The notes under the pieces were generated by a model. It was not told the DNA's origin and did not search any database. It worked only from the letters and a program-made list of their open reading frames with translations. From NCBI RefSeq assembly GCF_028641065.1, contig NC_073377.1, positions 144,832,001 to 144,896,000 on the forward strand: a stretch of DNA of 64,000 bases, given 5' to 3'. The translations under genes and the position numbers were made by a program. This document shows, piece after piece, positions 2,511 through 63,442 of the stretch. The stretch comes from Leucoraja erinacea. Taxonomy: Eukaryota. Numbering within the stretch: position 1 is the stretch's first letter; every line of letters begins with the position of its first letter.

Positions 2511-2605
2511 CTGAAGAAGGGTCTCGACCCGAAACATCACCCATTTCTTCTCTCCAGAGATGTTGCCTGTCCTGCTGAGTTACTCCAGCATTTTGCATCT
2601 ACCTT
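2511..2605 (+). mobile_element. Penelope-terminus-derived short element with hammerhead-like motif
   Basis: CTGAAGAAGGGTCTCGACCCGAAACATC followed by the family body (ttctctccagagatg...gctgagttactccagc). Confidence 0.7.
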
Positions 2606-3741
2606 CATTCCCTATCTCTTACTACAAAATTCATGAGGAAAGAGGAAAGGCTAAATCCATGCAAATACTCAAATCATGCTCTACCTGTCAGAGCACGAGC
2701 ACAGCTACATCAACTAAGCACAGTTTAAATCATCTGCCCATGAAAGTTGCAGTGAATGAATCAAAGAATAAAATCATAGCATGGGTTGGTCATAGTTACT
2801 AAAGGTTTGCTATTTTAGTATGATTTCCTTCTGCAACCATTTACTGGCGCGCATTCCATTCTGGAAAAAGTAAGACCAGGTCTGTAATTTATGTGTAATT
2901 TTTCAGCAGGACTGCAGTCCAGTGTGAAGCAAATTACAGCACGTCTGAGAATCTGTTCATAAATTACAATATAGCAATTGTAGTTTTACTCAGAAAAGAC
3001 AAATAGTAAGGTTGAAAGAAAGAGGGTAGAAGCAGCTTGTCAATGGCAGCTAATATGTCTGGAGATATAAATTCATTTCCAGCATCTGCAGCTTTTGATT
3101 TGCTCTTTGGTTACATTTAGAAAATGAAAGATTTGGCATCTGAAGGATTCAGAAACCAGAAAATGATCATCAAGATAACTTAGTAAAAACGCACACAGAG
3201 CAAAACTCTGCCAAATTGGAAAATCTGCAGTGATTTCTCATTCGGCTATTGTTCTGTTGTGCAAAATTTCATAAAAAGAGTTTGGATCATGAAAAATAAA
3301 CATCACTTATTTTCTTGATGTGCACACGTTCTCTGTAGTAACTGGTGTTTCAGACGTACATTCCTTTAGAGGCTTGGAAGGAGTAAGCAGTGAGGTAAAA
3401 TGTTTCCAATGTTGGCGAGTCCAGAACCAGGGGCCACAGTCTTAGAATAAAGCGGAGGCCGCTGCCTTTCGTTGTCTCTGTACTGTACACGGACAATGAC
3501 AATTAAAGTTGAATCTGAATCTGAATCTGAATCTAAAGACAAGCTGTGACCTTTACTGCCATTGACGGTATATAGTCAATGATGTGCGAGGACTTTGCAT
3601 GGCGGCAGATTGCAGCTGATGATGTAGCTCCATAACTGACTCCCTAATGAAATGGTCTGGGGTGACAGTTGTCTTCAGATAATCACAAACAGAGGTCTAT
3701 ATGAGGATCTGAAAAATGTGGCTGCATGGATAATGACCAGT

Positions 3742-3979
3742 TGTAGCGCCACCCGGTGGTTAGGCCACTTACTATGCGAACCCTCAGCAGTCGGGGGTAG
3801 TGTCAAGTGACTGGGTAATGGCGGGAAGGAGTTGTCATGAGGTTTAGGGGAGTGTCCTAGTATAAGTATTCAGCCCCGGGTCAACCTTCCCCCATTCACG
3901 TGTGTGTTGTTCCCTTTACTTCAGCAATAAAGATCTCTTTGATTTACCACGCGTGGCTTGCTTATTTGCCAACCATACA
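3742..3979 (+). mobile_element. Solo LTR (Gypsy-like)
   Basis: TGTAGCG...ATACA ends, TATA-like agtataag and AATAAA. Shares GGGAGTGTCCT with the LTR at 12343. No clear TSD. Confidence 0.55.
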
Positions 3980-4756
3980 GCTCTAGGGGCTAGCAGAATC
4001 AAGGGATATGGGGAGAAGGCAGGCACGGGTTATTGATCGGGGACGATCAGCCATATCACAATGAATGGCGATGCTGTGTTGAAGGGCTGAATGGACTCGC
4101 CAACATTGGAAACATTTTTCCTGCATCTAGCTTGTCCAGTCCTTTTATAATTGTATATGTTTTTATAAGAACCCCCTCATCCTTCTAAACTCCAGTGAAT
4201 TCAGTTCTTCCAGCAGTTCTTCATTTTTTTTTGAGTAAAAAAAGACAGGTTTACATTTATTTTCCAACTTTTCACAACATCAGCATGCTCCAAAGCATTT
4301 TTCAACCAATGAAGAACATCATTGGTGAATTTGATTAGCAGGTAGCTCTGGTGAGGATACGATATGATCAAACTTTATTTATCCCAGGAGGGAGATTGAT
4401 CTGCCAACAGTGATAAAACACAAGATACATGAAACATGAAATTAAAGTGGTGAGTGGAAAGGATTGGGGATGTGCAAAGATTGGGGTGGGGGGAGGGGAG
4501 TCAGTCTACCCCACGACAGAAGGGGGAAGAGTTGTACAGTTTGATAGCCACAGGGTAGAAGGATCTCCTGTGGAGTTCTGTGCTGCATCTTGGTGGAACC
4601 AGTCTGTTGGTGAAGGTGCTCCTCAGGTTACGATGGATATTTTATGTTCATTGAAAGACAGTACATTTGTTTAACCTCTCATCCAAAATATGCACCTCTG
4701 AGCAAAACATTCTTCCAGAATTGCACCAAAACATCACCCATTGTTGAGTTACATAT

Positions 4757-5290
4757 AAACATAGAAAATAGGTGCAGGAGGAGGCCATTCAGCCCTTCAA
4801 CACAGCACCGCCATTCATTGTGATATGGCTGATTGTCCCCGATCAATAACCCGTGCCTGCCTTCTCCCCATATCCCTTGATTCCTCTAGCCCCTAGAGCT
4901 CTGTCTAACTCTCTCTTAAATCCATCCAGTGATTTGGCCTCCACTGCCCTATGTGGCAGGGAATTTCACAAATTCGCAAATCTCTGGGTGAAAACGTTTT
5001 TCTCACCTCAGTCTTAAATGGCCTCCCTATTATACTAAGACTGTGGCCCCTGGTTCTGGACTCACCAACATTGGAAACATTTTTCCTGCATCTAGCTTGT
5101 CCAGTTCTTTTATAATTTTATATGTTTCTATAAGATCCCCCTCATCCTTCTAAACTCCAGTGAATACAAGCCTAGTCTTTTCAATCTTTCCACATATGAC
5201 AGTCCCGCCATCCCAGGGATCAATCTCGTGAACCTACGCTGCACTGCATCAATCACAAGGATGTCCTTCTTATCACAAGGATGTCCTTCC
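4757..5290 (-). mobile_element. CR1/HER1 LINE 3' fragment
   Basis: ORF 5128-5364 VQRRFTRLIPGMAGLSYVERLKRLGLYSLEFRRMRG, plus the CR1 3' tail (rc of aaacatagaaa). Confidence 0.9.
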
Positions 5291-5517
5291 TGTTCTATCA
5301 TTAGGCCAGAAGATTTAACCCCAAACCTTCCAACACAGATGTAATTACAATATCCAACATGCATAGCCTCTTCCTTCCAAAATTCTTTAATTCGTCATTT
5401 CCTTTGAAATCCAGTAGCCATTAATGCAGAAAACTAGGTTTTGGTGTTTTGTTTTTACCTACCGTAACCTACAGCTCTGGAAAGCATCACCAAGGCCGAA
5501 AATGAAATTGTCCATAA

Positions 5518-5820
5518 AGGGCCTGTCCCACTTACCGGAACCCGTGATAGGTCATCAAAATTTTCAACAATTCAGCGGTGACCAGAAAGACCAGGCTGTA
5601 TGGTCGTGAGAAGTCTCCTTTGGTCGTGAGAGGTCACCCATGACATGTCGCCAGGGGTCGCCTGTATGATCGAGAGACGTCTCCTATGGTCGTTAGAAGT
5701 CTCCAAAGAGTCGTAGCATCTTTCTGGACGCCGCTGAATTTTCAACATGTTGAAAATTTTGGCGACCTATCACGGGTGCCAGCAGGCACCTGTAAAGGTC
5801 AAGTAAGTGAGACAGGCCCT
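5518..5820. mobile_element. PIF/Harbinger-type MITE
   Basis: TIR AGGGCCTGTCCCACT.../...AGTGAGACAGGCCCT; TAA TSD on both sides. Confidence 0.8.
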
Positions 5821-5920
5821 TAAAAGGACTACTCTGCCTGAGATATTTCTTTCCCCTGTGAGAGCTGCAAGATCTGTAGAGCGGGATCTTTTTTTTCTCC
5901 TGAAAAAAGAACCCCAAGTA

Positions 5921-5958
5921 TGGTTCTGAAGAAGGGTGTCGACCCGAAACGTCACCCA
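5921..5958 (+). ncRNA. Minimal type-I hammerhead ribozyme motif (Penelope type)
   Basis: CTGAAGA-A-GGGT-GTCG-ACCC-GAAA-C-GTC: intact core, 4-bp stem II, palindromic ACGT stem III and GUC cleavage triplet. Activity is untested. Confidence 0.6.
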
Positions 5959-6110
5959 TTCTTTCTCTCCAGAGACGCTGCCCGTCCCGCTGATTTACTC
6001 CAGCATTTTGTGCCTATCTATGGTTCCATGGTACTTTATTGTTGCGAGTACCTACGCAGAGTGACATTCTTTTTCTGCATGCAGTTCAGTGACAACCCTG
6101 CAATGCATTA

Positions 6111-7015
6111 GGTAGACAGAAGTGCTGGAGAAACTCAGCGGGTGGGGCAGCATCTATGGAGCGAAGGAAATAGGCAACGTTTCGGATCAAGACCCTTCTT
6201 CAGACTGATGTGCAGATGGAGGAGGGGGGGGGGGGGGGGGGGGGGGGGTTAGGAAGAAAGAAAGAGCCAGAGGGCTGAGGGACAGCTGAGAAGGGGAGGA
6301 GGAGGTAGGGCCCCATCAACATATTAAGGACTCCCTGAAATTAGAGTAGTCAATGTTCATACCACTGGGGTGCAAACTGCCCAAGCGAAATATGAGGTAC
6401 TGCTCCTCCAATTTACAGTGGTCCTCACTCTGGCCATGGAGGTGGCCCAGGACAGAAAGGTCAGATTCAGAATGGGAGGGGGAGTTGAAGTGCTGAGCCA
6501 CTGGGAGATCAGGTTGGTTATTGCGAACCGAGCGGAGGTGTTGGGCGAAGCGATCGCCAAGCCCATGCTTGGTCTCACCGAAGTAGAGCAGGTGACATCT
6601 AGGGCAGCGCATGCAATAGATGAGGTTGGAGGAGGTGCAGGTGAACCTCTGCCGCACCTAGAAAGACTGCTTGGGTCCTTGAATGGAGTCAAGGGGGGAG
6701 GTAAAATGACAAGTGTAGCATTTCTTGCGGTTGCAAGGGAAAGTGCCCAAAGAGGGGATGGTCCGTGTGGGAAGGGACAAATTGACCATGGAGTTACGGA
6801 GAGAGCGGTCTCTGCGGAAAGCAGACAGGTGAGGGGATGGGAAGATGTGGCAAGTGGTGGGATCACGTTGGATGTAGTGAAAATGGTGGAGGATTATCTG
6901 TTGTATGTGACGGCTGGTAGGGTCGAAGTTGAGGACAAGGGGGACAGCCCTTGTTACGAGTGGGGGGATGGGGAGTGAGAGCAGAGTTACCTGGTATAGA
7001 AGAGACCCTGGTGTG
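6111..7015 (-). mobile_element. Penelope-like retroelement 3' part (GIY-YIG endonuclease + terminal repeat with hammerhead motif)
   Basis: ORF 6316-6657 NLIYCMRCPRCHLLYFGETK...RFAQHLRSV...VAQHFN is a GIY-YIG domain. Upstream ORF 6658-7062 has PCNRKKCYTC. Hammerhead motif at ~6175-6203. Confidence 0.9.
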
Positions 7016-7144
7016 AATATGACATTAGGCTCATTCACAACATTAGAATACATTAAGCACATTCACACTAAATTTAAGAGTGTAAGATAGTGGACCATGC
7101 TGAGTCCGTACACAAGAGCTGCAATGTTTTAGGCATCATCTTAA

Positions 7145-7146
<2 letters not shown>

Positions 7147-8215: not shown

Positions 8216-8797
8216 CAAGCACCTTGCCCCTAATAATAACAATCCCACTAAGCTCTGCAGCCTGAATCTCTTGAATTGCTGGCACGTTGCTGGTGTCTTC
8301 GCTGTGAAGACCGACACAATAAAACTTATCCAATCATTTTCCAGCCATCCAATATCCACTCTTTTATATTATTGTCTGGCTTACCTTTATATTTCATCTG
8401 AGGCTAACTCAGCAGATCAAGCAGCATCTCCTGAAGACAGTCTGAAGGGTCCAACCCAAAACGTCATCTATCAAACTCCTCCAGAACCACTTTGTTATTC
8501 TAGTACTTTGTATTCTACAGAATAAGCACTCGGACTGCCCATGATAAGTAAATATTCCTTAATGTTTCCCACAATTTTTGGAATAAAATTCCTCTAAAGA
8601 AAAGCAGGCAACCTAATATTTTTGTTAGTTTCTTAGAATTAAACAACAAATTTGATACAACTTTTTAAAAAACTCTAATAACCCTTTTGATGCAACGATG
8701 ATTCAAATATATCCACAACAGAGATCTCCATAATGCTCTTGGACAATGCGCAGAGACCTACATATCGTTATTGAGCAGAATTGAATGTAAACAAAAT

Positions 8798-15389: not shown

Positions 15390-18300
15390 GTGGAAGAGAG
15401 AAAAATGATTGGCCAGGGTGGCAAGTGTGCTTGATGATATTTCCTGTCTTCCTGACACAATGCACTGTGAAGGTGGAAGATGATGAGCCTGTGATAGATT
15501 GGACTGTGTTCCCCATTCTCTGCAGATCCAGGTGTTCAACACATTCTATCAAGTATCAGTAGTTTAAGAGAATCCTTGTGGACATGCCAGATCTTCCCAG
15601 ATGCGGAAAGAAAGAAATGTGCTGATGTGCCTTCTTGATAGTGCATCAGTGTTAAGGGCCCGAGTAGATCGCTGGTGATATGGATGCCTAGGAACCTGAA
15701 GCTGCGTTGATGAGGACAGGTTGAATTAATCTTGCTGACGATAAGTGCTAGATTATTGTTCTGAGACCAAAAGACAACTGGCATCATGGTGGCGCAGCGG
15801 TAGAGTTGCTGCCTTAAACCAAATGCAGCGCTGGAGACCAGTGTTCGATCCGGACTACGGGTGTTGTCTGTATGGAGTTTGTACCTTCTCCCCGTGACCT
15901 GCACGGGTTTTCTCCGAGATCTTCAGTTTACTCCCACATTCCAAAGACGTACAGGTTTATAGGTTAATTGGCTTGGTTAATGTAAAAATTGTTCCTAGTG
16001 GGTGTAGGATGCTGTTAATCCATCGATGGTTGGCGCGGACCCGGTGGGTCGAAGGGCCTGTTTCCGCGCTGTATCTCTAAAACTAAAACAAGGTTCCTGA
16101 ACTCTTCCCGGTACTCCATGTCATCACTGCTGTTCATCTGGCCGATAAAAGTTGGTTTCAGCGATGAACTTAAAAGATGGAGTTGGCGCTGTACCTGGCC
16201 GCACAGTCATGGGTGTGATGGGGGTAGAGGAAGGGTCCAAGCACATAAACAGAGGAGCACCAGCGTTGATGGTCAGGGTGGAGGAATCTTATGACCATTT
16301 CTAACCAACCGAGGTCTGCAGTCATGAAGTCCAGAAGCCATTTGCAGATGGATACACCAAGGCACGTCACTGGAGTTTAGAGATGTGTTTATTCAGTATT
16401 ATGATGTTGAATACTGAGCTGTAGAAAGGAATAACATCTTGTCATAGATATTCTCTTTGATAAGATGACCCATGTTGTGCATGGGGAATGATGTCACCTG
16501 TAGACCTATTCCTGCTGTAAACAATTTGCAAAGGGTCTAGATTGTCCGTGAGTGGCACAAATGGGGTCTATTAACAATCTTTGAAAGTACTTTATTATGG
16601 TCGATGGCTAAAGCCACTGAGCAGTAATCATTAAAACAGGTCACTTTCTAGTTCTAGGGAAACTGGGATGATGAATGTTTTTTTTGAAGCAGATGGGGAC
16701 AGTAAATTGTTAAAGTCCCAGTGGATTGGGACACAATTTTAGAACCAGTCCATGAATTTCATCTAGATTAGCTGCTTTCTGAAAGTTTATCCTCATGAAA
16801 GTAAAGCTGACTTCTGCCACCAAGAGAAATGGGACAGAGCAAGCAGGGAGGGGGGGGGGGGGGGGGTTCCACCTTGTTGGTCCTTTGTTGCCTGTTCACA
16901 ACAGTTATAAAAAGGCATTGAGCTTATGCAGTAGAGGTGTGCCCTAGCCAGACTTCAGTCACTGTTTGGGATTGAAGACAGTGATGGTATTCAGGCCTTG
17001 CAACTGTTGCCTGACATCCACTTAACTGGATTCAGTTTTTAGCTTGTTCTGTATTTTCTCTTGACATTCCCAATAGTCTTACAGGAACTATACTTGATCT
17101 TCTTGTGCAGTGCGGGATGATACTTCTTAAAAGCCTCAGATATGGACTTTTGCAGAGAATGAATTCCGCTGTCTAGCAAGGAACTGCAGATGCTGGTTTA
17201 AACAGAAGAGACACAAAATGCTGGTGCAATTCAGCGGGACAGACAGCATCACTGGAGAGAAGGAACGAGTGATGTTTTGGGTCAAGATGCTTCTTCAGAA
17301 TGCTCCCACCCCACTGTTCATCCAGGTTTTCTGGTTAGGATAGACCCAAATTGCCTTTGTGGGAATGTGGTGAATCTCTGGAACTCTCTGCCACAGAGGG
17401 TAGTTGAGGCCAGTTCATTTGGCTATATTTAAGAGGGAGTTAGATGTGGCCCTTGTGGCCAAGGGGATCAGAGGGTATGGAGAGAAGGCAGGTACGGGAT
17501 ACCGAGTTGGATGATCAGCCATGATCATATTAAATGGCGGTGCAGGCTCGAAGGGCCGAATGGCCTACTCCTGCACCTAATTTCTATGTTTCTATGTACT
17601 ATGTGGTCATCAACCCATTTTTTGATTAACCCAATGATGACTGAAGTATACTCATTCATTCTAGATTAAGGGGTCTTTAACACAGTGCAGTCCACCGAGT
17701 CATGGCAGTCTTGATGAAGACCCTTGGCCTCCACGGCCAATGTTGCGTTACTTCCTTCACTGTTGCCTCATGCTTCAATCTGTCCGTAAGCAGGCAGATG
17801 GAGCACTGACATATGATTAGACTGGCTGAAATAAGGGCATGGGATGGTGCGATAAGCATACTTCATGGTGGTGAAGAGTGTTGAGATCCGGTGAGAGGCG
17901 GGAGGAGGAGAACAAAGGGGGAGCCGGCGTTCTTTGTAACTTTGCCAGCGCCGTAGGTGGCCGCTATTTGTATACCTTGGGTGTGCAAGCAAAGAGTTTC
18001 ACTGTGCTTAGTCACATGGGACAATAAAGCATTCCATGAGGTTTACATACTGGTGATGATGTTCAGCACATCAGGGTTTGCTATCTTAAGGGGAGTTGAC
18101 AGCCAAATATAATTTGTCCTGTGCCATCTCGGTATTGACTTGGGGCGGAACATAGACTGCCGCTTCGTTTCGCTCGTGTGTCAGACGATGTAGCTCGCTG
18201 TTGGCTTCTGTCATCGTCCAACATGTTGACAGAATTGTTGCCCGACATAGACTGGCAACAAGGTGGTAGAGGTGAATTCCTTCGGTGGCCAAAAGGGACA

Positions 18301-19545: not shown

Positions 19546-21126
19546 GAGTTATATGGCAGGAATGATCTATGGTGCATTACAGGGCATAGCACTTCCATAA
19601 CTGCCTGTCCATTTGTCAGTCTTCCAATGCAGCTTTTTTCCAGATATAAAAAGAGCAAAAGTCACCTTTACCCAAACATTGGATGTTCCAAACATGATCA
19701 GTGGAGCTCTTTTATTCCTGCAAATGCAGCAATGAGCAGCAGAATACCACATGCCATACATCGGACAAGAAAAGCTGCGGAGAGCCTGAAACAAGATTTA
19801 CGAGAGCAAAGGTCACCCTCCCTATCTTTGACTTTGAGAGTAGCGCAGCCGCTTTTGTGAACCAGCACTTCTGGTTCAAAGAGGTCAAAGACATTTCTCA
19901 AGTAAAATAATCAATGCTGATAGTATTATGTTGTGGACATTTAAGGATAATTCAGAGTTGTGAGGAAAGGTGAAGCAGATTTTTAGTGTCACTTATTTAG
20001 TCAGATGCCATTCTCCAGTTATCTTTTACATGGATACACATGGAAATGCTCTTCTGACATGTGCAACCACCTAATTTTGAGAGGAACCTGCTGGAACCAA
20101 TTGTGGGGCTGGGATCCCGTCTTGGATCTCAAAGTCATATTGTTCCACATGGGAAAATTGCCTTTCCATACAACTCATCAATGCTGATCATGGTGCCTTT
20201 CTGACTTTGTCCCATTTATCTGAATTTGACCCATATCCCTTTAAACCTTTAATTTACATTAACCCGTCCAAATGTATTTTAAATGTTATAATTGCACCCG
20301 TTTCTACCATTTCCGGTAACACCTCATTCCATACATCCACCATACATCACATACATACTCTCTATGTGAACAACTTGCCCCTTTACATTGTTCCCCTCTC
20401 ACCTTAAACAGATGCCCTCAAGGAAGCCCTGGGAAATAGTCTACGACCTTATCTATGACCCTTATGATGTTATAGGCTTGTTTTCCCTGGAGTGAAAATC
20501 ACCCTTCTCCTTCTGTGGCTCAAGGGAAAATGCTGCAAGCCTATCAATCTATTCCTTGCAATTCAAGCCCTCCATTCCTGGTAACATCCTTGCAAAACCA
20601 CTCTGCACCTTCTCCAGCTTAATTACACCCTTCCTCTAGCAGAACTGCACATGATACAAGTGCAATCTCACCAACATTTGTTACTGCTGTAACATGACAT
20701 CCCAACTCTTGTACTCATCTATGGGTGACGTTTTGGTTTGAGACCCTTCTTCAGACAGAAGAAGGGTCTGAAACAAGGTCTCGATACGAAACATCAGCCT
20801 TTCCTTCTCTCCAGAGATGCTGCCTGTCCCGCTGAGTTACTCCAGCTTTTTGTGTCTGCCTTAGATAAGATTCTTGATTAGTACAGGTGTCAGGGCTTAT
20901 GGGGAGAAGGCAGGAGAATGGGGTTAGGAGGGAGAGATAGATCAGTCGTGACTGAATAGCGGAGTAGACTTGATGAGCCAAATTGATTAATTCTACTATT
21001 GCTTTTGACCTTATGTCCCAGCAAACAGATAAAAATCACAATTGGTTGACATCTCCTCAACATGCAAGCAGCTTAAGCTTGGTGGTGAAGGCAAAATAAT
21101 GGCCTAGGTCAGTCTGAGAAGAGTTA

Positions 21127-24010: not shown

Positions 24011-27000
24011 TTTTACTTCGGAGTCACGTGAGTGACTACGTGAAGACCCCGCCAGCACGCATGCGCGACATATCGTCTCTCGCATTGCGCAAACGACAGG
24101 CTGTTGGAGCGCTGCTTCCAACAGCTCGGACCTGAAGGTAAGTTTTTAACTTTTTCAGGTCTCTTTTTTTACTGCAGGAAGCGTTCAGAGCTCCTGCTGG
24201 AGGTCCGAGGTCGGAACCCCAGCGCCACCCGGCTCCCTTCTACAGGGACCGCCGAGGGTGTGGGGGGGGGGGAATCCCGGCTGCGAATCGCGGGGATATC
24301 CGAAGCCGACCACAGAATCGCGGGGAAGCCCTTTATCGGGGACCGCGAGGGAAACCCCATTTACTAAGCCACGCCGGCTCGGGGGAAGCCCAAAACCAAG
24401 GGAGCATTCAAAGGGGAAATCCCGGCTCCCGACACCGCAAGGATCCCTGCTACAAGGTTCCATAGATGCTGCTGCACCCGCTGAGTTTCGCCAGCATTTT
24501 AGGTCCCAACTACAAGGGCCGTGGGGAATGCCGACCGCAGGGAGAAGCCTGGCTGCGGGGACCACGGAACCTCAGAAGACTGCAGGTAACCTGCCTTCCG
24601 GGACCAGAGGAAGACCGCGGGTAACCCGTTCTCCAAAACCGCGGGAAGACGGCGGGTAACCAGTTCTCTGAGACCGCGGGAAGACCACAGGTAACCCGAC
24701 TTTGGAGGCCACGGGAAAACCACAGGTAACCCAACTTCAGAGACCATGGGAAACCACGGATAACCCGACTTCAGAGACCACGGGAAAACCACGGGTAACC
24801 CAGCTTCAGGGACCGTGGGAAGACCACGTATAACCCAGCTTCGGGACCGTGGGAAGACTGGGGATAACCCAGCCTCGTGGACCGTGGAAAAACAGCGAAT
24901 AACCCAGTTTCAGGGACTGTGGGAAGACTGTGGATAACCAAGCTACAGGGACCTTGCGAAGAACACGGGTAGAACCGTGCTTGGGGGGAAACCTCAGCTA
25001 CGGGGACCGTGGAAGACCACGGGCAGAACCGTGCTTGGGGGAAACCTCAGCCACGGGGACCGTGCAAAAGCGGCGGGTAGATCTGTGCTTCGGGGAAACC
25101 TCAGCCACGGGGACCGTGTGGGAGACCGCGGGTAGAACCGTGCTTGGGGGACACCCCAGCTACGGGGACTGTGTGGAAGACATGGCTAGGACTGCAGAGG
25201 AGCGGGTAGCCAGCGGCAAATTCAGACTCCGCCTGCCCGAGGAGGGTAAGAGCTAAAACAGGAGTCTGAAAGGCCTAGACTGCAGTCAGGCCAGAAGGGT
25301 CCCCTCCGACATGGGTTCGTCCGAGTTAAACCCATCTTAATTTGCCAGGGAGGGCCATATCAGCGCAGGTCTCCTCGAGAGCCTGTGGCAGCACCCTTTT
25401 CTGGGCTGCCTACAAAACTCACTTCTGCGAAGGTGAGTGCGAGGAGTCAGTTGGCAACTGACTCTGAACTCGGAAGCATGTCCGAGGAACAGGTGCCGGC
25501 TGGGAGTTACCATGCACCTGGAAAGACATGGGTCCACATACACCAGCAGCCCTACACTCTAATCAAGGATGGAAATTGAACCCGCATCGAGAGCCTTTTG
25601 GGCTTACCATAAAACCACCGGTAGCCATGACGGTAGGTGGGTCTGGTTCTTTGCAAAATGTGGGGTTGTGGACTATTTACAAGAAGGTTGGATGAGATAG
25701 TTTATACTGCACAGTTCAAGCGAGACAATCTAGGAATATGCCTGGAGTTGCCTCTTTAGGCAGGCTCGCTATTATGACAAATGAGGTATGTTTATTATCA
25801 ACAAGCCCAACTCGCATGTGCAGTATAGACATTGAAACTTTGTGACCATTAATTCCCTTGGGGTCAGCTTCATTCACAGGGCACTGGAAATAACTGAAAT
25901 TTAACTGGATGGGGAAATGATAGTTAAAACATTGCAAAATAGGCTAACTTCAGTTTCCAGGTTATTTACAAAATGAGTGCTTCGGCTGCTCAGTTTTAAA
26001 AATATTGTTAAGAACTGTCTGGATGAGATTAAACAATGTATTTTGCTAAATTAGCTGTATCAGCCACAAAACCCATTTGAGAAATTGGGTTCTCATCTGT
26101 CCAGATAAATTTAAGTTGATACCAACTGAACTTATTGATAATTGGGATTACCTTTAACTCAATTTAATCGTCTGGGACTCCATCCTGAGGTAAGGGATTG
26201 GAATTAATTGAAGCCCGTAACAAAACTGATCAAGCAACCTTCTGTTCATCAAGTATAATTGGCTTACAGCTGTGCTATTTGGGCCTTTGCACAATCAGAA
26301 CTATACAGCATGCAAAAGAAGTAAGCACTCAAGTATCATGTGGTCATTGTTACCAGCTCTATGCTATTCCACTAAATCAGTAAATCTTCAGTTAAATTAC
26401 AAACTGATGCTATTGTTCAGGATGAGAAATTGCTCATGCCATCTAGTTACAGATGTGGATGGGAGAGTTACCAATTCCTCAGTTACATGGTATCAACTAC
26501 CTAGAGACACTGGGTGCATTCTGTGGATTAAAGGTTTATGCGAATATGCCTAATCTGCATGCTCTAGTCCAAGTTGATACACTTCGGTGGTGGTAAACAT
26601 TATTTACATGGGTGCAAACAAGTAAAAATATCCGGTGATAGTTTACCCAAACCTCATTACGGTACACAATATGGGTGTTGGATCACAAAGTATTAAAATA
26701 CATTGTGAACATTAAAGACCAAGAAGCTTGCATATTGGCTCAATCACCAGTGGAAAATATGTGGCATATCGGTAGCGTTGGTTACATTCTAGCTACATTA
26801 AGGAGGAATGTTCTTTTATGTCTTCCTCCATTTCTGCCTCATCAGACGGGTTTGCAAAATTCAGCAAGTTCCCGCCTCAAGAATTTTTATAGTGCCTGCC
26901 GGGCTTAGCCAGCCATGGTTCCCACTAATGTGGGGAATGATAGAACCTTATATGGTTATTCTAGACATAAGTATTGGTCTAGCCGTGACGCGGGAAACTG

Positions 27001-32056: not shown

Positions 32057-32093
<37 letters not shown>

Positions 32094-41684: not shown

Positions 41685-42170
41685 AGGTTGATCTCCCGGT
41701 TGCCAAACTCTTTAATTCTCCTTCCAATTCCCAAGCTGACCATTCCGTCCTAGGCCTCCTCCATTGTCAGAGTGAGCCTAAAGGCAAATTGGAGGAACAG
41801 CATCTCATATTTAGCTTGGGCAGCTTACAGCCCAGTGGTTTGAAGATGATTTCTCTACATTCAAGTAACTCCTGCATTCCCTCTCTCTCCATCCCTCTTC
41901 AACCCAAGTTGCACCAGCTTCTCATTTTCACCTAGCAAATACCTAACAATGGCCTGCTTCCTTTATCATCATTACTTTTTTGCATATCATTCATTCATTT
42001 GTTCTACATCTCTCTGCATCCCTGTCTATATCTCACATTTCCTTTTCCCCCAACTCTGTCTGAAGATCTCGACCTGAAGCGTCACACATTCCTTCTCTCC
42101 AGAGATGCTGCCTGTCCCGCTGAGTTATTCCAACATTTTGTGTCTGTCTTCGGTTTAAACGGTTCCTTCA
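41685..42170 (+). mobile_element. Penelope 3' end plus terminal repeat
   Basis: DLPVA...KLEEQHLIF.LGSLQPSG remnant followed by a degenerate hammerhead unit at ~42060. Confidence 0.8.
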
Positions 42171-42796: not shown

Positions 42797-44781
42797 TTAG
42801 TGTTCCAGAGACGCATATTTGACCCTAACTTTGGACGCTGTCCATGTGGAATTTGCATGTTTTATACCATATCTGCATGGGTGTCACACGGAGGTTCTGG
42901 TTTTTCCAAAGTATCGCTAAGGCATTGGGTTGGGAAGCTGTTTGACTACTGTAACCTGCCCCTTGTGTTAGTGGATGACAAGGGGGAAAGCTAATGGGCA
43001 TGTGCAAGTTACTGGGAAATAATGCGGAGGTTGGGCTGAAGGAATGCTCTTGGAGCCGGCAATGTCACCAAGGGTTGAATGGTCTCAATCTATGATGTGA
43101 GAAATATGAAAATAACATTGCAACAGATGACTGAATTTTCATTCACTCATTTAAATGCACTTTAAATTATGGTCAATTGTTTGCAGTCATGAAGTGAGAG
43201 AGAAAATCAGTGTGAAGAAGGGTCTCGACCCGAAACGTCACCCATTCCTTCTCTCTAGAGATGCTGCCTGTCCCGCTCTGAAATGACATTCTCATCAGTA
43301 ACTAATAGGAAATCAACCCTGGTTTACAGACATGCAGTCTTTCATCAAAAAAATATTCACTCACTGTCGCATAATTAACTACCGGAATCAGTTATAAATT
43401 TGAAAGCTTTGAATTTGAACTGATGAATGAACAACGAGTTCTACTTTTGCTGGTTGAGGTTCAATGTCTTTGCTTGCTTTACCGCACACACCACGCAAAG
43501 GCTGGAGTTGTAGATAACCGTAGCAAACCATTTGCCTCAAGGGTTCGAAAAGAAATAATGCGTTCGTAATACCCAAAGGTCAATGATAAAGGCACGCTCC
43601 GCACAGCTGAGTTCACTTCTACAAATCAGCAATCTCAGAATGCAAAGTTGCCAACTGTATCTATGTTATTGTCTGCTTAGGCTACATTAATTTTAAAAAG
43701 GGAAGGCATTTTTCCAATTACTTCTGGTGAGCACTCATGCAGAATATCTTTTTTATGCAACATTAATGGGCACAGTTCTCTGTTCAACTCGCTGCTTAAA
43801 TCAATTAATGTGCATATTTCCATTAAAACCTGAAGCAAAGCACTGAACATTGATTGAAGCACAATCATGATTAAGAATTCCTTTTTAAAAAGTACCCTTT
43901 CCCTCTCAGGAGGCACAAATTCTATTTTTATCTGTTACTGCTGAAAGTATGCAACAAGCTCCAGTTTTCTTTGTTAAAAGGGTGGAAAAAATGATTATTT
44001 TGCAATAATCAGCTGGCAACTGAAGTATAGAAACGACACATACCGACTGCAGTTCAAAGTTATTTTGCAAATTTCTGTCTTTGGAACATAGGGAGAGGAA
44101 TAGGTCCCTTTGGCTTTGAGTGTTTCATTATTCAGTAAGATACACTCACACAGCATATGCGTACACACACAGACCCACTCACATCACATAGACATGTTAC
44201 AGAAACACGGAGCACTCTCACACATCCTTGGCATGCATGAAATAAAAACAACAAAAGATGGAAATATTAAGAAAATCACCCAGCATCTTTGCTGCCAATA
44301 AGTAGGTTGTCGACTGTAAACACAAACATTGTTTCGACAAATACTGCCTGACCTACGCAGTAATTCTAACATTTTCTATTTTTTCTGACTTTCGATATCT
44401 GCAATTTTTTTGCTCTCCTTAGCAAGTATTTTACTGTCTCATCTAGATTTGTTTTTGGAGGTAAAAATGTTAGTCCTCTTAATTGACACTTCTCCGTATG
44501 TTATTGAACAAGAAACTAAAATTATCAAATGAAGAACAAAACCAGAGTTATACATTTGTATCTCTCATAGTCCAAATATCTTACTTTGTGGATGACCATG
44601 AAGGCCAAGTGGATAATGTTACTAACAGAGTCCCACAAGTATCTGCACGAAGATAACTTCAGTTTATTTTTATCAGTGGTCTGGAGCTAAATGTCACAAG
44701 TATAGTGGTCACAATTATATCAAACTAATGATGATGCTTACAGTAAGTACGAGCAGGTTAGCCGCAGGAGCTCTCCAATAT

Positions 44782-47075: not shown

Positions 47076-47880
47076 TATGGGCAACTTTCTATTCACACAA
47101 TAAGGGGATGGTTATGTGGGCTTATTCTGGAAAATGCTTCAACAGATGATGCTGGAGTAGCCAGGCTGTCTGGCATAACCATGAATATTACATGTAATGA
47201 TACTCTATGACTGTAAAAGGAGGAAAAGAAAATATATAATACACAATTTGCGTTAACCATTCCAGAAATTCAAAAGATCAATGCTACAGATTTATTTTGC
47301 TTTTAATGTTGAAACCAAAATTTCAAAACACAATTTAATAGCAGACAGCATCAGACAGCAAACATTCCTTGCTCTCCAATGTCTGGAAGCTGAGTGGGTT
47401 ATTTTTCTCTATTCATCCTAAAAAAAAAACGATTTCAGCATTATCTAGAAATCTCTCAAGTTAACGCCACACGCCTCCCACAATAGTCATATCTAGGAGT
47501 GAGGCCACGGCAATGATGGAGTAATTCAAACATCCCTTACATCTGATTATGTCTTTGTTAGTTCTTTGAAAAAAAGCTCTTTGAAAATGCACTTAGAGTC
47601 TGCAAGAGATATCACAGGCTAGCTCCTGATATCACGTCCATTTACAAAAACTTTGCATCATTCCTTGGCGCCCAAGTTTGAGATGTGGCATTTGGGGAAA
47701 TCAAATCAGGACAGGACTTTCACAGTGAACGATAATATCTTTCCTATACCATGTGTAGGAAGGAATTGCAGATAGACACAAAATGCTGGAGTAACTCAAC
47801 GGGACAAGCAACATCTTTGGAGAGAAGGAATGGGTGACATTTCGGGTTGAGACCCTTCTTCAGACCTGATGTCCTCTAGT

Positions 47881-51055: not shown

Positions 51056-52208
51056 TCAATGGTTCTCAAGCAGAACCCCTAGGGGAAGTTGGAGGATGAT
51101 TTTGGTGACCTGATGATAAGCACGTCAGGATACATATTAAAGTGAACTACCCATTTTTCTCATGCACATTTGTAATGGTTGTCTGGTCGTGAATGTCTGG
51201 AGTAAGGGCCAGACCACCAATACCATTCCTATTAACGAAATGAAGCTTTTGGTTTCATGCAAAACCTGCAAGATCCAAGAAATCTGGTCATTCAGGGCAC
51301 TGAATCCCTTGGGCGAACAACAAAATGCTGGAAGAACTCAGCAGGTCAGGGCAGCATCTGTGGAAGAAATGGCCAGATTATGTTTCAGGTCAAGACCTGT
51401 CTCCAAACTGAGTCAGAGTCTGAAGAAGGCTATTGACGAGAAACGTCATCTGGTCATTCCCTCCATAGAAGCTAGTTGAGTTCCTCCAGCTGTGACCCTG
51501 TTTGATCTGCTGGGCTCCTCCAGTAGTTTGTTTTTTTGTTGCCTGTTTTTCACTCTATTGCATTAGTATGTCAGTTTTATTTCCATATTTAATGCGCCCA
51601 TACCAATCTTGCAACTTACTTATGCAATACTTTCCTCGCAATGTCTATAGATGGCAGCACAAATCATCCTTGAAGTGCTTCTTCAGGTGAATGCTGTGTC
51701 TATGAACCAGTGCCAGGTGAACACTAAACCTTTTAGCTGTAAACTTGTTTTCTTAAATTATTTAAGTTCAAGATATAAATATTTAACTTATATTTAAAAA
51801 TAATTAGAAATATTTTTCAAACACATATTTGTGCTTGTCAACAGTTAAAACATTTCCATCAGACAGAAACTTTTCACCTGCAAAAGAATCACCAATCTAG
51901 TTTTGCTGTGTGGAAAAAAAAGAACACTTCCCCCAACGTTTCCATGGTTTCAGTTCCCAATGGTGCTATTACTAGTGAAGGACTTCTTCCTTCTCTTCCT
52001 AACAATTGCAATACAATACCATGTATATAAAAACTGACTCCCAATTCTAAATGTCCAAAATAAATTAATGACCCCATTCAACTTCAACAGCTAATGGGGC
52101 AGAGGTTAACATAACCTTTTTTGCTCTGCCCAATTTCAATTCAAATGTATCTATCTTTTCATATTTAATGCTAATTAAGGACACGGAATAAAAACTATTT
52201 TGTTCTAC

Positions 52209-52497: not shown

Positions 52498-54330
52498 TTA
52501 CTAACTGCATCCGACTCTAACTTTATGACCTCATCCCCCAGATTAGAAAGTCAAGTGGATATTTAAAACACAATCATATAGCATTAAAAATGATTGGGAA
52601 AGCCATTGCATTGATATTAAGTGATAAGTTCATTTGGAATGTGGGTCACCTACAAGGAGCACAATTGTCAAAAGCCAATATGGTTTCAGACAAAGATTGA
52701 GAAACCAAGGAGGAATTATTACACACAGGAGTCTTTGCTGGAAGAATGAGAACTGACGCTTAATCACCAGTAGAATAAGGAGATTGAGAGTCCAGGACCT
52801 AGGAACAAAATGACAAAACTATAATTCGAAAATACAAAGGAGAACAGATTAGAGGTAAAGGAATTATCAGAGTCCTTCACTGGTATTGCCAACAGTTTAT
52901 TTCAAAATTAAAGAACAGATTGGGAGACCAGGTTATTTTACCAGCTATGATTTCCATTGATTGGAAGATCCTAGGTTATCGAATCTGTCAGCTGATTATC
53001 GAACACACAGAAACATAGAAAATAGGTGCAGGAGTAGGCCATTCGGCCCTTCAAGCCAGTACCGCCATTCAATGTGATCATGGCTAATCAGCCAAAATCA
53101 GTACGTCGTTCCTGTTTTCTCCCCTAATATCCATTGATTCCGTCAGCTCTAAGATCTATATCTAACTTCCTCTTGAAAAAATACTCTTCCAGAGTCACTG
53201 AACTCAGCGTTGACCAGGAGCTGAATCTTTCTAGGTCCTTGCCCTCCCTCCGTCTTCCTTCCATTTTCTTCCTCCTCTCTCTGCTTCTGGAGAAAGAGCA
53301 TCCAATAGCTACATGTCAATCTTTGCTTCAACGTAGTCACTGCTGAATGCTGCAGCCAAGGAAAACTTGTGAAAGAGGCTAATAATGAACAGGCATTGTG
53401 TTGCACGATGTAGGAACTCCCGTGCAGTCCACAGATGTCCACAGAGGGAAGAAGATTGTGAAGTAAGTTTGTTAATTACAGCAGTCAATGGGGAACCAGA
53501 AGCAATCCCCACCGACTGCCAGATCCCAGCCATGTTGTCTTTTCTGGTCTGGGTTTTGACCTTTCTCAGTCAGGTGCCAGGTCAAATTATAAAGCAAATA
53601 GGGTATCTCATAACAATCTTGTAAGAACTTATTCCCCATTGAAATGAGAGATGTGGTGAATAAAACAAAGAGCTGTTTGCAAAGCTACCTCTCAGTGGCG
53701 GGACCAAGCACAACGTGTAAAACATTTAAAACAAATAAAACATCTAAACCGAACTGGATGCCTCAAATTTATCTGAAGGGTTTCGACCTGAAACGTTGCC
53801 TATTTTCTTCGCTCCATAGATGCTGCCTTACCCGCTGAGTTTCTCCAGCATTTTTGTCTACCTTGGATGTCTCAAATGTGTTTTATCCAGTGCCACTGTA
53901 ATAGAAAAATAACATTGAAGGTTTTGAAAGGTAAGGGTAGAGAACAGCGCCACCTACAAATAGAGATGAGGGATTGCAAGACTAAAGAGTAATAAAGAAA
54001 AGAAGAAAAGCAAAGAATATGACAGAAAAGTCCAATAGTCATTGTGTAGGTGCAAGAACTCAAAGACCATTTCACAAATACCTAACAGATGACACCAGAA
54101 GTTTTAAGAAGGAAGAGCTCATCGGCAAACCTATCAATGCAATTTCAGTTTTGCATGATTTTTTATAAAAAGCATTCATTACAATTAATATGCTGATATT
54201 ACACACATCAGCATCAAACATTGCAGTTATTTCACTCCTACATTTTCATAGAGTTACAAACTGGCCCTTCAACCAACCTCATCTATTCTGACCATGAAGT
54301 ATCCAGTTATACAAATCCCATTAATCAGCA

Positions 54331-54689: not shown

Positions 54690-57600
54690 GTGTAGATACT
54701 CTACCAACTTCCCAGGTGATACATTCCAGATGCACCCATCCTCCAGGTGAAAATATTCTTCCTCAGATCCCCTTTAAAGCTCTTATTCCTCACATTAAAC
54801 CTATGCCAGAATCTGGAACAAAAAAGAGAATTGCTGGAGAAACTCGGCAGGTCTGATAAAGGTCACTGACCCAGAACACTGACTGTTTCTCTTTCCAGAA
54901 ATGCTGAGTTTTCCAGTCATCATAAATCCTCCTTCTCCATTCCAGGCAGTCACAAGTGACAGGCGAGAGGTTTGAGATCTTTTCTCTAAGTAATCCATGA
55001 AAGGGGAATCCAAGATGGGATGGGATGGGATGGGAGAAATGACTGCTGCCCAACAAACCATGAAATTTGTGCTGGGTTTAAAGCCTTAATCTTCCAACCC
55101 CCTTTTCCTTACTCCTGATGTGTTGAAAGTGATAACACATTTCCACATTTATGCCTGCCTCGACTACGAGATACCAACTAAAATATGGGAGTGTTTCAGC
55201 AGTGAGGAAGTACAACAGAGCTTATAAACAAAAGGAATCAGGCAACTGAACCATCCAATGGAACCACCAACTTGAGCTACTTTCTACCACATTAGAGGCC
55301 TTTGAACTATCTTTGATCGGACATTACTGGACTTTATCTTGCACTAAACGTTATTCCCTTTATCTTGTACACTGTGCAATCATGCTCGATTGTAATCATG
55401 CATTGTGTTTCCGCTGACTGGTTAGCATGCAACAAAAGCTTTTTACTGTGTAGGAAGGAACTGCAGATGCAGGTTTACTTCGAAGATGGACACAAAATCC
55501 TGGAGTAAATCAGCAGGACAGGCAGCATCTCTGGCTAGAAGGAATGGGTGAAGAAGGGTCTCGATCCGAAATGTCACCCAAAAGCTTTTTACTGTTCCTT
55601 GGTGCACACGACAATAAACTAAACTAAACAGGAAGACAACAATTTAGTCACATTTTCTGGTGGTAGGCAAGAAAACATTGCTTGTATCTAATTTATGGAC
55701 AGAGCAAAAAACCGGTCATAACTACAACATAACATCCTGCACAGTAGATCAGCTCTGAGCACTGAACCAGTTTATTCTTTCTTTTGGGTATTAATACTTT
55801 GTACAGAAAGGGGGAAAGCAGTTCATTGAATAGCACCATAGCTGAGAACCACATTTTTCCATGAATATATGTTTTTGATGTACTATGCCTCCATTTTAAG
55901 ATGTGAAACCAGAATACAGTATATCAGCACAATGTCAACAAAACATAATCGCTAGAGAGAGCATGTAGTGTGCCAATTTGTTGCCATGTTTTCCAAATTA
56001 AAAATAATGGCCTGAGTTAATTAACTGGATGTGTAAATTGTTTGAGGAATTCTGAAATGAACGTGAAAGGGCCTATATAAACGGTGAATATTTTATTGAA
56101 TGCATGGTTGGCTATGGATGAAGTTATTTCCTACTGCTACTAAAAAGAAAAGCAGTCATATGGATAAGAAGCATATAGAATCCCAACATTTAAGCAGATA
56201 GACAGGTACATGAATAGGACAGGTTTGTAGGGATATGGACCAAATGCTGGCAGGTGGGACTCGTGGAACTGGGACATGTTGGCCGGTGTGAGCAAGTTGG
56301 GCCGAAAGGCCTGTTTCCACACTATCACTCTATGACTCTATGAGAAAAGTGTGGTACAAAATCAACAGGAGTTGGCCTGTGAGGGAACAATTCAACGTCA
56401 AAGAAATTAAGCTGGGTTTACGTGGCAAGGAAGGTGTGTGATCATGGCATGGAGAGATCAGCATATGAGCAGGGTGTCAGAATGAGAGGATTAAGAGGGA
56501 GAAAATTTTAACATTTTGATATTTTGCCACCACTAATAACTAGATAAATTAATATTCTGAATACATGTGTCATAAGCAAAGTCTCATACGCTAACTAGCG
56601 TATCATAATTAGAGGCAAGGTAGTACAATCAGGTGTATTGTAAACAAATCTGAAAAAAAAGTCAATCTTTAAAAGATGGGAGTACAAGCAGCAGTAAAAG
56701 TTTAACGCACAAACCATAAGGGCCTAGATCCTAGATACATTTGAGCAGATATTCTATTTTAGTGATATTGCTTGAGATTTCCAAGGTCTTCTTTGATTGT
56801 TGCAAAGGGATTTTTTTTCCATCCCTGCTTTCCAATGCTTTGCAAAGAAAAGGGCATCTTTGACAATGACATAGTCCTAATTTCTACACTGAGGCATCAG
56901 TATATTTTATGTATTCAGATCCCTGGTGTGTTGTTTGAATTCTCATCAGGTCCCTGGCGTGTTGTTGGAATTTGATCTAGAGTCAACAGCAGGCTGACAT
57001 TATTGCAGCTATTATACAGGCGTGGGGTCAAAACACCACTCCAATGTTAAACTGGTGAAACCATTTGCAACAAAGGGCAGGAACGAAGTCAAACTTTTCA
57101 TAGTAAGTTCCTGTGGGTGTGGCTCAGTTTGGATTTCCTTTGCCCTTGATGAAGGGATCACTTCACAAAAAATTACTTCCCAAGTTACAAAAGAACATAA
57201 GATCAAGGGGAAAAAATTAGGCCATTCGGCCCCTCGTGTTTCTCTGCCATTCAATAAAATCATGTCTAATTTCTTAACCAGAAATTCCAGCTTCCCAACC
57301 TAGTAGCTCATGGCTGCTCTTTAGTTGGTGGTTCAGTTGCCTGATTCCTTTTGTTTATATGCTCTGTTGTACTTCCTCACTGCTGAACCACTTCCATATT
57401 TTAATTGGTATCTTGTAGTCAAGGCAGGCATAAATGTGGAAATGTGTTATCACTTTCAACATACCAGGACTGAGGAAAAGGGTGTTTGAAGATTAAGGCT
57501 TTAAACCCAGCAATAAGATCATGGTGTGTTGGGCAGCAGTCATTTCTCCCATCCCATCTTGGATTCCCCTTTCATGGATCACTTAGAGAAAAGATCACAA

Positions 57601-61948: not shown

Positions 61949-62110
61949 GTCTCGAAATTTGTTCCAATGCCCGGGCTCCTTGTCGTACTGCGAGACGGTG
62001 GTCAGCCATTGTTTATCATCCAGAAAATTGCCGTTGTCCGCGGCTGCACGGTGCCTGCCTTCTATCTGCAAAAAGGCTACAGCAGCAACACAGAGCAGGA
62101 CCTTTAGCAT
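61949..62110 (-). CDS. SPOCK3: Testican-3 first coding exon (signal peptide + N-terminal testican region), 54 codons, phase-0 donor
   Basis: Translates MLKVLLCVAAVAFLQIEGRHRAAADNGNFLDDKQWLTTVSQYDKEPGHWNKFRD, matching the vertebrate SPOCK3 N-terminus as I recall it (MLKV...GNFLDDKQWLTTISQYDKEVGQWNKFRD). Polypyrimidine/AG acceptor (ttctccctttctcgtttgcag) directly before the ATG; GTATGT donor after the GAC codon. Confidence 0.93.
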
Positions 62111-62278
62111 CTGCAAACGAGAAAGGGAGAATTTGTTGTTTTTTTTTGTTTAAATGCATCCATTCCGGGGGAGTAGGGGACACAGTGTGTGTAAAGAAAA
62201 AAATTGTAGTGCATATTGAAATGACGGTGTGTTGAAATGTGAGGTTTGTAAGCGGTGGGTGTTGTGGAGGAGCTTCAC

Positions 62279-62473
62279 CTTGCTTCTCGCTGCAGCTGCT
62301 GCGATGAGAGCTCGGTGCAGCCTCGAGCCTCTCTCGCCGTGCACGCGACTGGCGGGCGGGCACGCGCGCAGTCTTGCGCGTGCACGGCGGCGGCGGCGAC
62401 GACAGCCCGGCGCGTTCCCGACACATGCACCAGCGCAGCACCCCCCACCCCCGGAGCAGCGCGGTGCCGCCGC
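62279..62473 (-). promoter_or_regulatory. Putative non-coding exon 1 / CpG-rich promoter of SPOCK3
   Basis: CpG/GC-rich stretch with (CGG)n. Donor AG|GTGAAG at 62279/62278 gives a 168-nt intron to the acceptor at 62111. The transcription start cannot be determined. Confidence 0.6.
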
Positions 62474-62489
62474 TCTGTAGATTTCATAT

Positions 62490-62698
62490 GTGTGTTGAAA
62501 AGGAACTGCAGAAGCTGGTTTACACCGAAGATAAGACACCAAAAGCTGGAGTAACTCAGCGGGACAGGCAGTATCTCTGGAGAGAAGGCATGGGTGACCT
62601 TTCGGGTCTAGAGAAGGGTCTCGGCCCGGAAAGTCACGCATTCTTTCTCCCCAGAGATGCTGCCTGTCCCGTGGAGTTACTCCAGCATTTTGTGTCTA
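62490..62698. mobile_element. Fold-back Penelope-derived hammerhead unit with 16-bp TSD
   Basis: Two inverted half-copies; TCTGTAGATTTCATAT at 62474-62489 and 62699-62714. Confidence 0.85.
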
Positions 62699-63413
62699 TC
62701 TGTAGATTTCATATACGGGGTTGCACATTACATTAATTGATGAAACACAATAACGCCTTTCGTATTTTAAGTTCGGACTTACATTGACTAAAAGGGCCAG
62801 TGAATGTTTGCTACCTTCTTCCCATTAAGCGTAGGGGAATTGCAAGGTTCTGTTAAGAACCTTGTAGGAAGGAACTGCGGATGCTGGTCTACACCGAAGA
62901 TAGACACAAAATGCTGGAGCAACTCAGCGGGACTGGAGACAGAGAAGGGTGTCGACTCGAAACGACACCCATCCCTCTCTCCAGAGATGCCGCCTGTCCC
63001 GCTGGGTTACTCCAGCATTTTGTGTCTATCTTCTCCCGGAATGATGTGGGCATTTAATCTGCATACTATTTTAATAGTACTAATAACATTTTAAATTATT
63101 TACTCGTTTATGTTAAATTTTCGACAATTTAACTGTCTTACTCTCGTCTTTGTGCAAAAGGATATGGGCATATTTTATATGTAGTAAGGAACTGCAGATG
63201 TTGGTTTAAACCGAAGATAGACACAAAAAGCTGGAGTAACTCAGCGGGACAGGCAGCACCTCCGGAGAGAAGGGAGTGGGTGACGTTTCGGGTCGAGACC
63301 CTTCTTGAGACTAAGCTTTTATGACGTGTGGAAATAGTGCCGAGCTTGAACAAGACAAAAATGCTGGATAAACTCAGCGGGTGCAGCAGCATCTATGGAG
63401 CGAAGGAAATAGG

Positions 63414-63442
63414 CAACGTTTCGGGCCGAAACCCTTCTTCAG
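63414..63442 (-). ncRNA. Minimal hammerhead ribozyme motif
   Basis: rc: CTGAAGA-A-GGGT-TTCG-GCCC-GAAA-C-GTT-G; intact core with a UUCG-capped stem II. Confidence 0.6.

Follow-up and report, generated by a model that had tools for sequence, protein, structure and literature searches.

Dispersed hammerhead-bearing repeats in the Leucoraja erinacea genome are probably abortive terminal copies of Penelope-like elements

A stretch of 64,000 nucleotides from the skate Leucoraja erinacea (contig NC_073377.1, positions 144,832,001 to 144,896,000; here called the window) is scattered with short repeats that begin with a hammerhead ribozyme motif and continue into a body of about 100 bp, which also ends the Penelope-like element (PLE) copies of the same window. 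The question raised by this locus is whether the repeats spread as a family of their own or are left behind by PLEs. The initial annotation favored the former, a family similar to retrozymes or short interspersed elements (SINEs). We found that the short elements are neither a separate lineage nor a new retrozyme family. It is quite probable that these stubs are hammerhead-bearing terminal ends of PLEs, inserted directly as abortive reverse transcripts, to judge from their target site duplications (TSDs). About half of the copies begin at the 5' edge of the ribozyme, which may mark where the element RNA starts.

The repeats are the 3' ends of several PLE families

The motif, the body and an optional tail of ~35 bp make up the 3' pseudo-long terminal repeat (pLTR) end of several Neptune-type PLE families, and the unit matches the PLE terminus along its whole length. 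Copies were collected with a repeat profile built from 11 window copies and applied to the window and to a genome sample of 80 evenly spaced 10-kb stretches from contigs C1 to C11 (800 kb). The order open reading frame (ORF), 3' untranslated region (UTR), hammerhead and body was found in 49 library matches with an ORF end, which comprise at least three UTR families with length classes of ~85 to 150, ~190 and 200 to 330 nt. A genome protein search with the window frame at 6661 to 6960 gave 40,835 first-look candidates. Candidate loci carry on one strand a reverse transcriptase (RT) with YIDD, a thumb, a CxxxxCxxC linker and a GIY-YIG domain, followed past a stop codon by a UTR rich in pyrimidines that leads via YCAGT into the hammerhead and the body.

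A further search with the N-terminal region returned many frames of 750 to 880 amino acids, and one of the 20 such loci retrieved (L164) is a full partial tandem. It runs from an ORF end through UTR, hammerhead, body and tail to an ATG at about +164 from C3 (C3 of CUGAAGA is position 0 throughout), and then through two long frames that overlap, with an offset in a C-rich tract, to a second UTR, a hammerhead and a tail-less body; the unit is present at both ends and the tail at the 5' copy only. The 754-amino-acid frame of this locus matched the Pfam families RVT_1 (E value of 5.7e-7) and, under the curated cut-off, GIY-YIG (E value of 0.0065 at residues 658 to 692). The CxxxxCxxC linker is present in L012, L164 and the window (6658 to 7062). 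Together these elements show the features of endonuclease-bearing (EN+) PLEs, namely, an RT followed by a C-terminal GIY-YIG, CX2-5CxxC upstream of the GIY-YIG, a partial tandem pLTR, an inverted 5' copy and an optional tail of 30 to 40 bp. The linker, described as a PLE clade feature (PMC8557442), and the host group point tentatively to the clade Neptune or Nematis.

Some further observations concern the parent elements. L164 (G000:C4:106336001-106343000) and L153 to L172 represent a young PLE family with many open frames in the length range given above. The second long frame upstream, overlapping the main frame with an offset in the C-rich tract, is seen in L158, L164, L165 and L168 and is either an assembly homopolymer error or a real frameshift; the joined frames imply a protein of ~1,250 amino acids, whose long N-terminal region matches no Pfam family. 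The UTR of family A (L075, L015 and L007) ends with one complement of the vertebrate telomere repeat directly upstream of the hammerhead. Telomeric PLEs combine telomere repeats with hammerheads (PMC8557442), and the single unit found here may be due to chance.

Half of the copies stop at the 5' edge of the ribozyme

The 5' ends were mapped with family profiles, an all-against-all BLAST having been dropped as too noisy. In the numbering used here, the predicted hammerhead cut falls after +27. Among the 267 family-assigned matches of the sample, 134 start between -15 and +10, while 49 extend beyond -40, and pyrimidine content upstream cleanly divides edge copies from long ones (only 2 of the 134 edge copies reach 0.75 or more). 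The stop rate per nucleotide (n = 265) was 0.065 at -10 to +2, compared with 0.012 at -11 to -40 and 0.007 at -41 to -80. Inside the unit it was 0.0075 at +11 to +40 and 0.005 at +22 to +33, values that are lowered by the under-detection of very short stubs. The hotspot at the 5' edge is ~9-fold, with no peak at the cleavage site (+22 to +33). It was found in family A (50/94), family B (36/71) and an old group (45/91), so that each parent family yields its own stubs at a similar rate, but not in the small group C (1/9).

We also examined 100 young copies, taken from the first matches of the exact A and B patterns on contig C1. They comprised 53 solo stubs, 16 inverted copies and 31 UTR-bearing copies, inverted pairs being under-counted because 15 rows were skipped (8 of B, close opposite-strand pairs, and 7 of A). 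TSDs of at least 9 bp (9 to 17 bp) flanked 29 of the 53 young solo stubs, compared with 6 of 257 controls; about three of the 29 assignments are doubtful, with the match lying within the tail or another repeat. The 5' junctions of the TSD-bearing stubs showed microhomology or a few extra bases, and the exact upstream match to the parent peaked at 2 nt (16/53; range, 0 to 9). The 3' junctions cluster at +86 to +97 and +125 to +131, ~35 nt apart, corresponding to two points of the PLE tail. As a side observation, the tail is complementary to the body over ~8 to 9 bp in both families, enclosing a small conserved hairpin (L164:6472-6613, minus strand). This complementarity may set the two RT start sites; the fold z-score is not significant.

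No scored head-to-head pair carries two tails

A head-to-head partner accompanies 84 of the 272 sampled matches. Tails could be scored in 44 of 56 inverted pairs, with one tail in 26, none in 18 (in some by decay) and two in 0, a result with p of about 0.02 if the arms were independent. Among the young inverted pairs, 15 of 16 have exactly one tail, and both arms belong to the same subfamily in 12 of the 13 pairs that could be typed. Inverted pLTRs inside one TSD with one arm tailed have already been described (PMC3846280). Long head-to-head PLE structures with ORF-bearing arms, which look like a large version of the stub pairs, were seen at L159, L171 and L154.

Copies in the window and in the genome

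The initial annotation listed the motif CTGAAGA...GAAA-CGTC/T at 19 positions of the window, and the motif or a recognizable remnant is present at all of them (19/19). The profile gave 26 matches, 13 per strand, and covers 18 of the 19 sites, the one at 8442 being too decayed; additional copies lie at 1266, 24459, 28353(-), 36418(-), 51320(-), 55484(-), 62533(-) and 62897(-). The proposed common body of ~100 bp is not whole in every copy: those at 20725(-) and 55548 are ~32- to 36-nt arms of inverted pairs, and the copy at 43210 ends after ~68 nt. The main bodies are of two kinds, A and B, which derive from different PLE families. Head-to-head pairs, not recognized before, make up six of the sites. 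The intact cores proposed at 5926, 6175 and 63414 became five with the minimal-hammerhead descriptor (5926+, 36501+, 63442-, 47863- and 6203-). The GIY-YIG copies were recovered by tblastn at 6334 to 7012(-), 32120 to 32446(-) and 41684 to 41848(+), with an additional one at 28515 to 28712(-). The copies are as follows.

1266..1343, plus: stub starting inside helix II, body complete (profile)
2510..2605, plus: A-type stub from the hammerhead edge; G16.2 lost via CpG decay
5925..6019, plus: A-type stub with intact core (descriptor), no tail, 8-bp TSD
6110..7012, minus: 5'-truncated Neptune-type PLE of family B, with thumb, CxxxxCxxC and broken GIY-YIG (6334-7012), 3' UTR rich in pyrimidines, hammerhead with its core intact (C3 at 6203), and body
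8442..8470, plus: decayed head remnant, below profile detection
17207..17299, minus: A-type stub, decayed core, then tail
20721..20862, both strands: head-to-head pair with a minus arm of 36 nt and a complete plus arm
24459..24505, plus: B-type body fragment without hammerhead (profile)
28353..28712, minus: older PLE 3' fragment with GIY-YIG end, UTR and partial body
31785..32446, minus: older PLE 3' fragment, long UTR, decayed hammerhead
36418..36594, both strands: head-to-head pair; the plus arm at 36501 matches the minimal-core descriptor
41684..42150, plus: family A PLE 3' fragment with GIY-YIG end, ~190-nt UTR, hammerhead with 4-nt deletion, and body
43210..43277, plus: A-type stub, C3G core change, shortened body
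47770..47865, minus: A-type stub, core matching the descriptor (U-G at 15.2/16.2)
51320..51491, both strands: old head-to-head pair
53773..53863, plus: B-type stub, core deletion, 14-bp TSD (1 mismatch)
55450..55580, both strands: head-to-head pair in one ~17-bp TSD, tailed minus arm and 32-nt plus arm
62490..62701, both strands: head-to-head pair in one ~16-bp TSD (by eye), tailed minus arm and tail-less plus arm
62897..63032, both strands: head-to-head pair, minus arm tailed
63175..63311, minus: A-type stub with tail, G5C core change
63351..63444, minus: B-type stub whose core is intact, lying 133 bp upstream of the copy at 63175

The last two neighbors do not form an intact dimer, because the core at 63175 is broken. 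No strand depletion was seen within the window (13 plus and 13 minus; intact cores, 2 plus and 3 minus), a small sample. An Rfam scan of the window gave no hammerhead or other relevant family at the gathering score, and Pfam gave no match for the GIY-YIG pieces among the window fragments. Near 62 kb, the minus strand carries a coding exon of the host that is bounded by AG and GT; it resembles testican-3/SPOCK3, a tentative name. No further exon motif was found in the window, which is probably mostly one large intron. Fragments of RTs of the long interspersed element type are located at 37749 to 38402(-) (RVT_1, E value of 2.2e-6) and 48317 to 48844(-).

In the genome sample, the profile gave 274 matches (272 on re-run), or ~1 per 3 kb, from which we extrapolate roughly 700,000 stubs if this density holds for the 2.19-Gb genome. 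Exact patterns matched 19,264 times for the A type, 19,527 for the B type and 51,111 for both (intact cores), and an extrapolation gives ~80,000 intact cores genome-wide. The repeats are not due to chance, because the descriptor, with 30 matches in the 800 kb of sampled genome, gave 0 in 4 Mb of shuffles, and reversed-pattern controls gave 0 matches genome-wide.

The stubs do not form a lineage of their own

The notion that the ribozyme terminus spreads as its own retrozyme-like or SINE-like family draws on a very high copy number, discrete boundaries, TSDs and RNA reads over the unit, and a preprint derives tandem retrozymes from pLTRs (10.64898/2026.07.22.740005). However, the short copies form no cluster apart from the UTR-bearing ones. 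Nearest neighbors shared their label at a rate of 0.572, compared with 0.568 after shuffling (p = 0.44; n = 193, with 133 edge and 60 UTR-bearing copies), and the main clusters mix short and long copies (e.g., 49 and 20 at a 6% cut). The marks of a SINE, a lineage with its own diagnostic changes and a promoter-bearing head unrelated to the partner, were not found.

The tandem units, each with a hammerhead, that characterize retrozymes are nearly absent as far as they were assessed. Genome-wide, the junction pattern of a B tail followed by a head, which covers tailed B units only, served as a proxy for tandems with two intact cores. It gave 43 junctions, 13 of them flush; in most of the 12 that were inspected the B tail adjoins an A unit, and in 2 no unit with a tail lies upstream. 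Such joins would fit nested insertion or a template jump. No same-strand neighbors closer than 500 bp were present among the first 100 of the 51,111 cores, and 25 of the 272 sampled matches have a same-strand match within 400 bp. Two side observations relate to these arrangements. B-family tails lie flush against A-family unit heads in L263 to L274, where the endonuclease may favor existing pLTR heads as targets. L099:5020-5200 has the hammerhead head by itself in three tandem copies of 42 nt each, a possible seed of a retrozyme-like array and a local case that speaks for the family proposed initially.

The expectation that the core would be better conserved than its flanks was not borne out in 135 sampled copies, where ten non-CpG core positions averaged 0.91 and the body 0.93 (p = 0.44), the body set consisting of 26 positions invariant across families. 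The CpG-embedded positions G12, C15.2 and G16.2 were conserved at 0.68 to 0.75. The core decays neutrally once inserted. Among the parent families, the core is identical and loop 2 variable, which fits selection in active PLEs; much of the body is equally constant.

The hammerhead and its RNA

The motif corresponds, as proposed, to the minimal type I hammerhead of PLE pLTRs, with an extra A before G10.1, the pair G10.1-C11.1 and a palindromic ACGU replacing helix III. The full minimal core (including palindromic 15.2-16.2) is found in the five window copies named above and in 30 of ~272 sampled copies, and helix I has 2 bp in 19 of these 30. In helices I and II, the families differ on one side of a pair (U-A to U-G), with no compensatory double change seen. 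In predicted monomer folds the core pairs with downstream pyrimidines, and a dimer model restricted to helices II and III reaches -13 to -15 kcal/mol, compared with minimum free energies of -29 to -31 kcal/mol; fold stability was not significant (z of -1.2 to +2.1). In published assays, the minimal PLE hammerhead had no activity as a monomer and low activity as a dimer (PMC4209133), while a PLE of the green anole was cleaved only with protein and inserted from uncleaved RNA (PMC11167929). Isolated stubs are probably inert.

RNA reads were examined over L164:5900-6900 in three raw RNA runs and one contig set with the same species label; the strand of single-cell reads is uncalibrated, and it was left unused. 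Bulk depth was ~2,300 per direction over the unit versus ~0.2 to 33 over the 5' region of the ORF. Of the placed reads, 93% continue into unlike sequence, with loose ends at the unit edges, and bulk read matches end mostly at -3, -2, -5 and -6 (689, 390, 287 and 279 reads, respectively), with unlike flanks. This pattern shows passive co-transcription of many stubs and not a start site.

A model for the origin of the stubs

In the scenario that we propose, the PLE protein would nick the target and prime on full-length PLE RNA at an internal site just upstream of the ORF (+95 or +130), a step modeled on in vitro data from the anole element. The cDNA would run ~100 to 135 nt through the uncleaved hammerhead to the RNA 5' end at TCAGTC and join the target via microhomology or a few extra bases. 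Head-to-head pairs with a single tail would arise when both nicked strands serve as primers, and the longer copies would come from read-through RNA or from a jump between templates. After insertion, the stubs would decay neutrally as passengers. Of these steps, we infer internal priming, run-off at TCAGTC and double priming for the pairs. We take TCAGTC to be initiator-like from its resemblance to the initiator consensus. The pLTR of Drosophila virilis has an internal promoter with initiator and downstream promoter elements (Inr/DPE-type) (PMC2377424), and work on the anole element found that RT starts at two internal points matching the tail and extends both strands, and that uncleaved RNA is inserted (PMC11167929).

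We also put forward, tentatively, a stronger version in which Penelope retrotransposition would begin with a strong-stop-like step, of which the stubs would be the genomic fossils, and in which the RNA starts at the 5' edge of the hammerhead. RT would prime internally, 95 or 130 nt downstream, and run off the uncleaved 5' end. Longer copies and partial tandems would require a template jump to the 3' pLTR, and head-to-head pairs with exactly one tail would come from two primings, one per strand and start site. In that case the main role of the hammerhead would be to pair ends or to bind protein, and the several hundred thousand stubs would provide a base-resolution map of the intermediate.

Several findings weigh against the proposed scenario. 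No TSD was detected in 24 of the 53 young solo stubs. The 5' ends of young copies spread over about -6 to +2 (mode at -2, 16/53) rather than falling on a single base, CAGT is present upstream in 10,833 of 19,527 B cores, beyond what UTR-bearing copies explain, and there is no clear cap-derived G (the -4 base is ~34 G, 40 A and 26 T in the first 100 of 2,051 matches, by eye). RNA read ends reflect the edges of genomic copies, and at no position do many molecules begin. The lineage test spans only ~95 nt and could miss small stub-derived subfamilies, and two clusters of 4 and 3 stubs have no long copy at the 6% cut. Lastly, the anole biochemistry comes from the Poseidon clade.

If the stubs are direct insertions, the hotspot could also be a block to RT, which while copying the 3' pLTR would stall at the start of the pyrimidine/poly-C tract (about -7) or at a protein-bound structure, followed by trimming to microhomology that would spread the ends over -6 to +2. 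A pyrimidine-rich tract does lie directly upstream in all parent families, few stubs reach past -6 to -9, and several TSD-defined starts fall at -4 to -6, upstream of the initiator-like A. However, the ends lie before the tract and not within it, a stall at a structure is expected 3' of the hairpins, where the stop rate is low, and YCAGT is kept across families whose UTRs are otherwise unlike. We regard such a block as possible but doubtful and, roughly weighed, lean toward an RNA 5' end as the cause.

The edge might instead be a splice acceptor (pyrimidine tract plus CAG), the stubs having been copied from spliced RNA. Yn-CAG precedes the core in all families, and the intron of D. virilis Penelope ends at helix I (PMC4209133 and PMC2377424), but no exon 1 sequence is shared between TSD and core, where the extra bases are short and heterogeneous, many stubs keep the AG or more of the acceptor, and no splice-type joint was present among the 15 joints displayed (41 further joints were not displayed). 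This makes splicing improbable. Self-cleaved or circular RNAs moving as a non-autonomous retrozyme or SINE family are more improbable still, and that reading is largely refuted by the lack of a stub clade, the B-to-A makeup of most inspected junctions, ends that miss the cleavage site, a core no better conserved than the body, hammerheads that are minimal and not canonical, and the absence from stubs of the ORF sequence past the tail that the anole PLE template needs (PMC11167929).

Comparison with known systems

As a family, these repeats are ordinary, since minimal hammerheads in PLE ends and in scattered truncated copies have been known since 2014. Their value lies in the data that they offer on the formation of pseudo-LTRs, inverted ends and tails by PLEs, and this genome also has young, intact-looking elements. 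From the stub ends follow sharp predictions: the ribozyme edge should show a 9-fold stop and the cleavage site none, and no pair should have two tails. Many intact cores are probably intronic, which would make it possible to ask whether such minimal hammerheads stay inactive within pre-mRNA. Literature searches on Penelope hammerheads in skate, strong-stop or template switch, and twin priming gave nothing on this family or hotspot; subscription papers, Repbase/Dfam and preprint supplements, which lay outside the search, may describe it.

The closest relatives of the motif are the PLE minimal hammerheads of Xena, Poseidon and Neptune (Cervera and De la Pena 2014, PMC4209133), which share the CUGANGA-N-helix II-GAAA-CG-UH core, the extra base before G10.1 and the palindromic 15.2/16.2. 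There too the motifs are mostly single and dispersed, are ascribed to truncated PLEs and include some opposite-strand pairs. Helix II has 4 bp here versus 7 to 8 bp in the Schistosoma motifs, whereas helix I has 2 bp as in D. virilis. The copy number is far higher here, with 51,111 exact cores against ~4,000 to 9,000 in coelacanth and Xenopus by their descriptor.

The parent elements resemble Neptune/Nematis EN+ PLEs (Craig et al. 2021, PMC8557442; Arkhipova et al. 2013, PMC3846280) in the RT, CX2-5CxxC and C-terminal GIY-YIG, the partial tandem pLTR, frequent 5' truncation, the inverted 5' copy in one TSD and the optional 30- to 40-bp tail on one arm. They differ in that about half of the insertions stop at one narrow spot, so that stubs of ~100 to 135 bp dominate, and in the long N-terminal region before the RT of L164. 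PAc, the Poseidon element of the green anole (Frangieh et al. 2024, PMC11167929), likewise has two 3' ends one tail apart, a hammerhead near the pLTR-ORF junction and no sign of ends at the cleavage site, but it belongs to a different clade, and its ORF starts at stem II, whereas the ORF found here begins past the tail. Non-LTR retrozymes (Cervera and de la Pena 2020, PMC7229834; Li et al., 10.64898/2026.07.22.740005) are also short, non-coding and pLTR related, with a type I hammerhead. They form tandem repeats, typically with canonical hammerheads and circular RNAs, in contrast to the dispersed monomers and head-to-head pairs with minimal cores found here.

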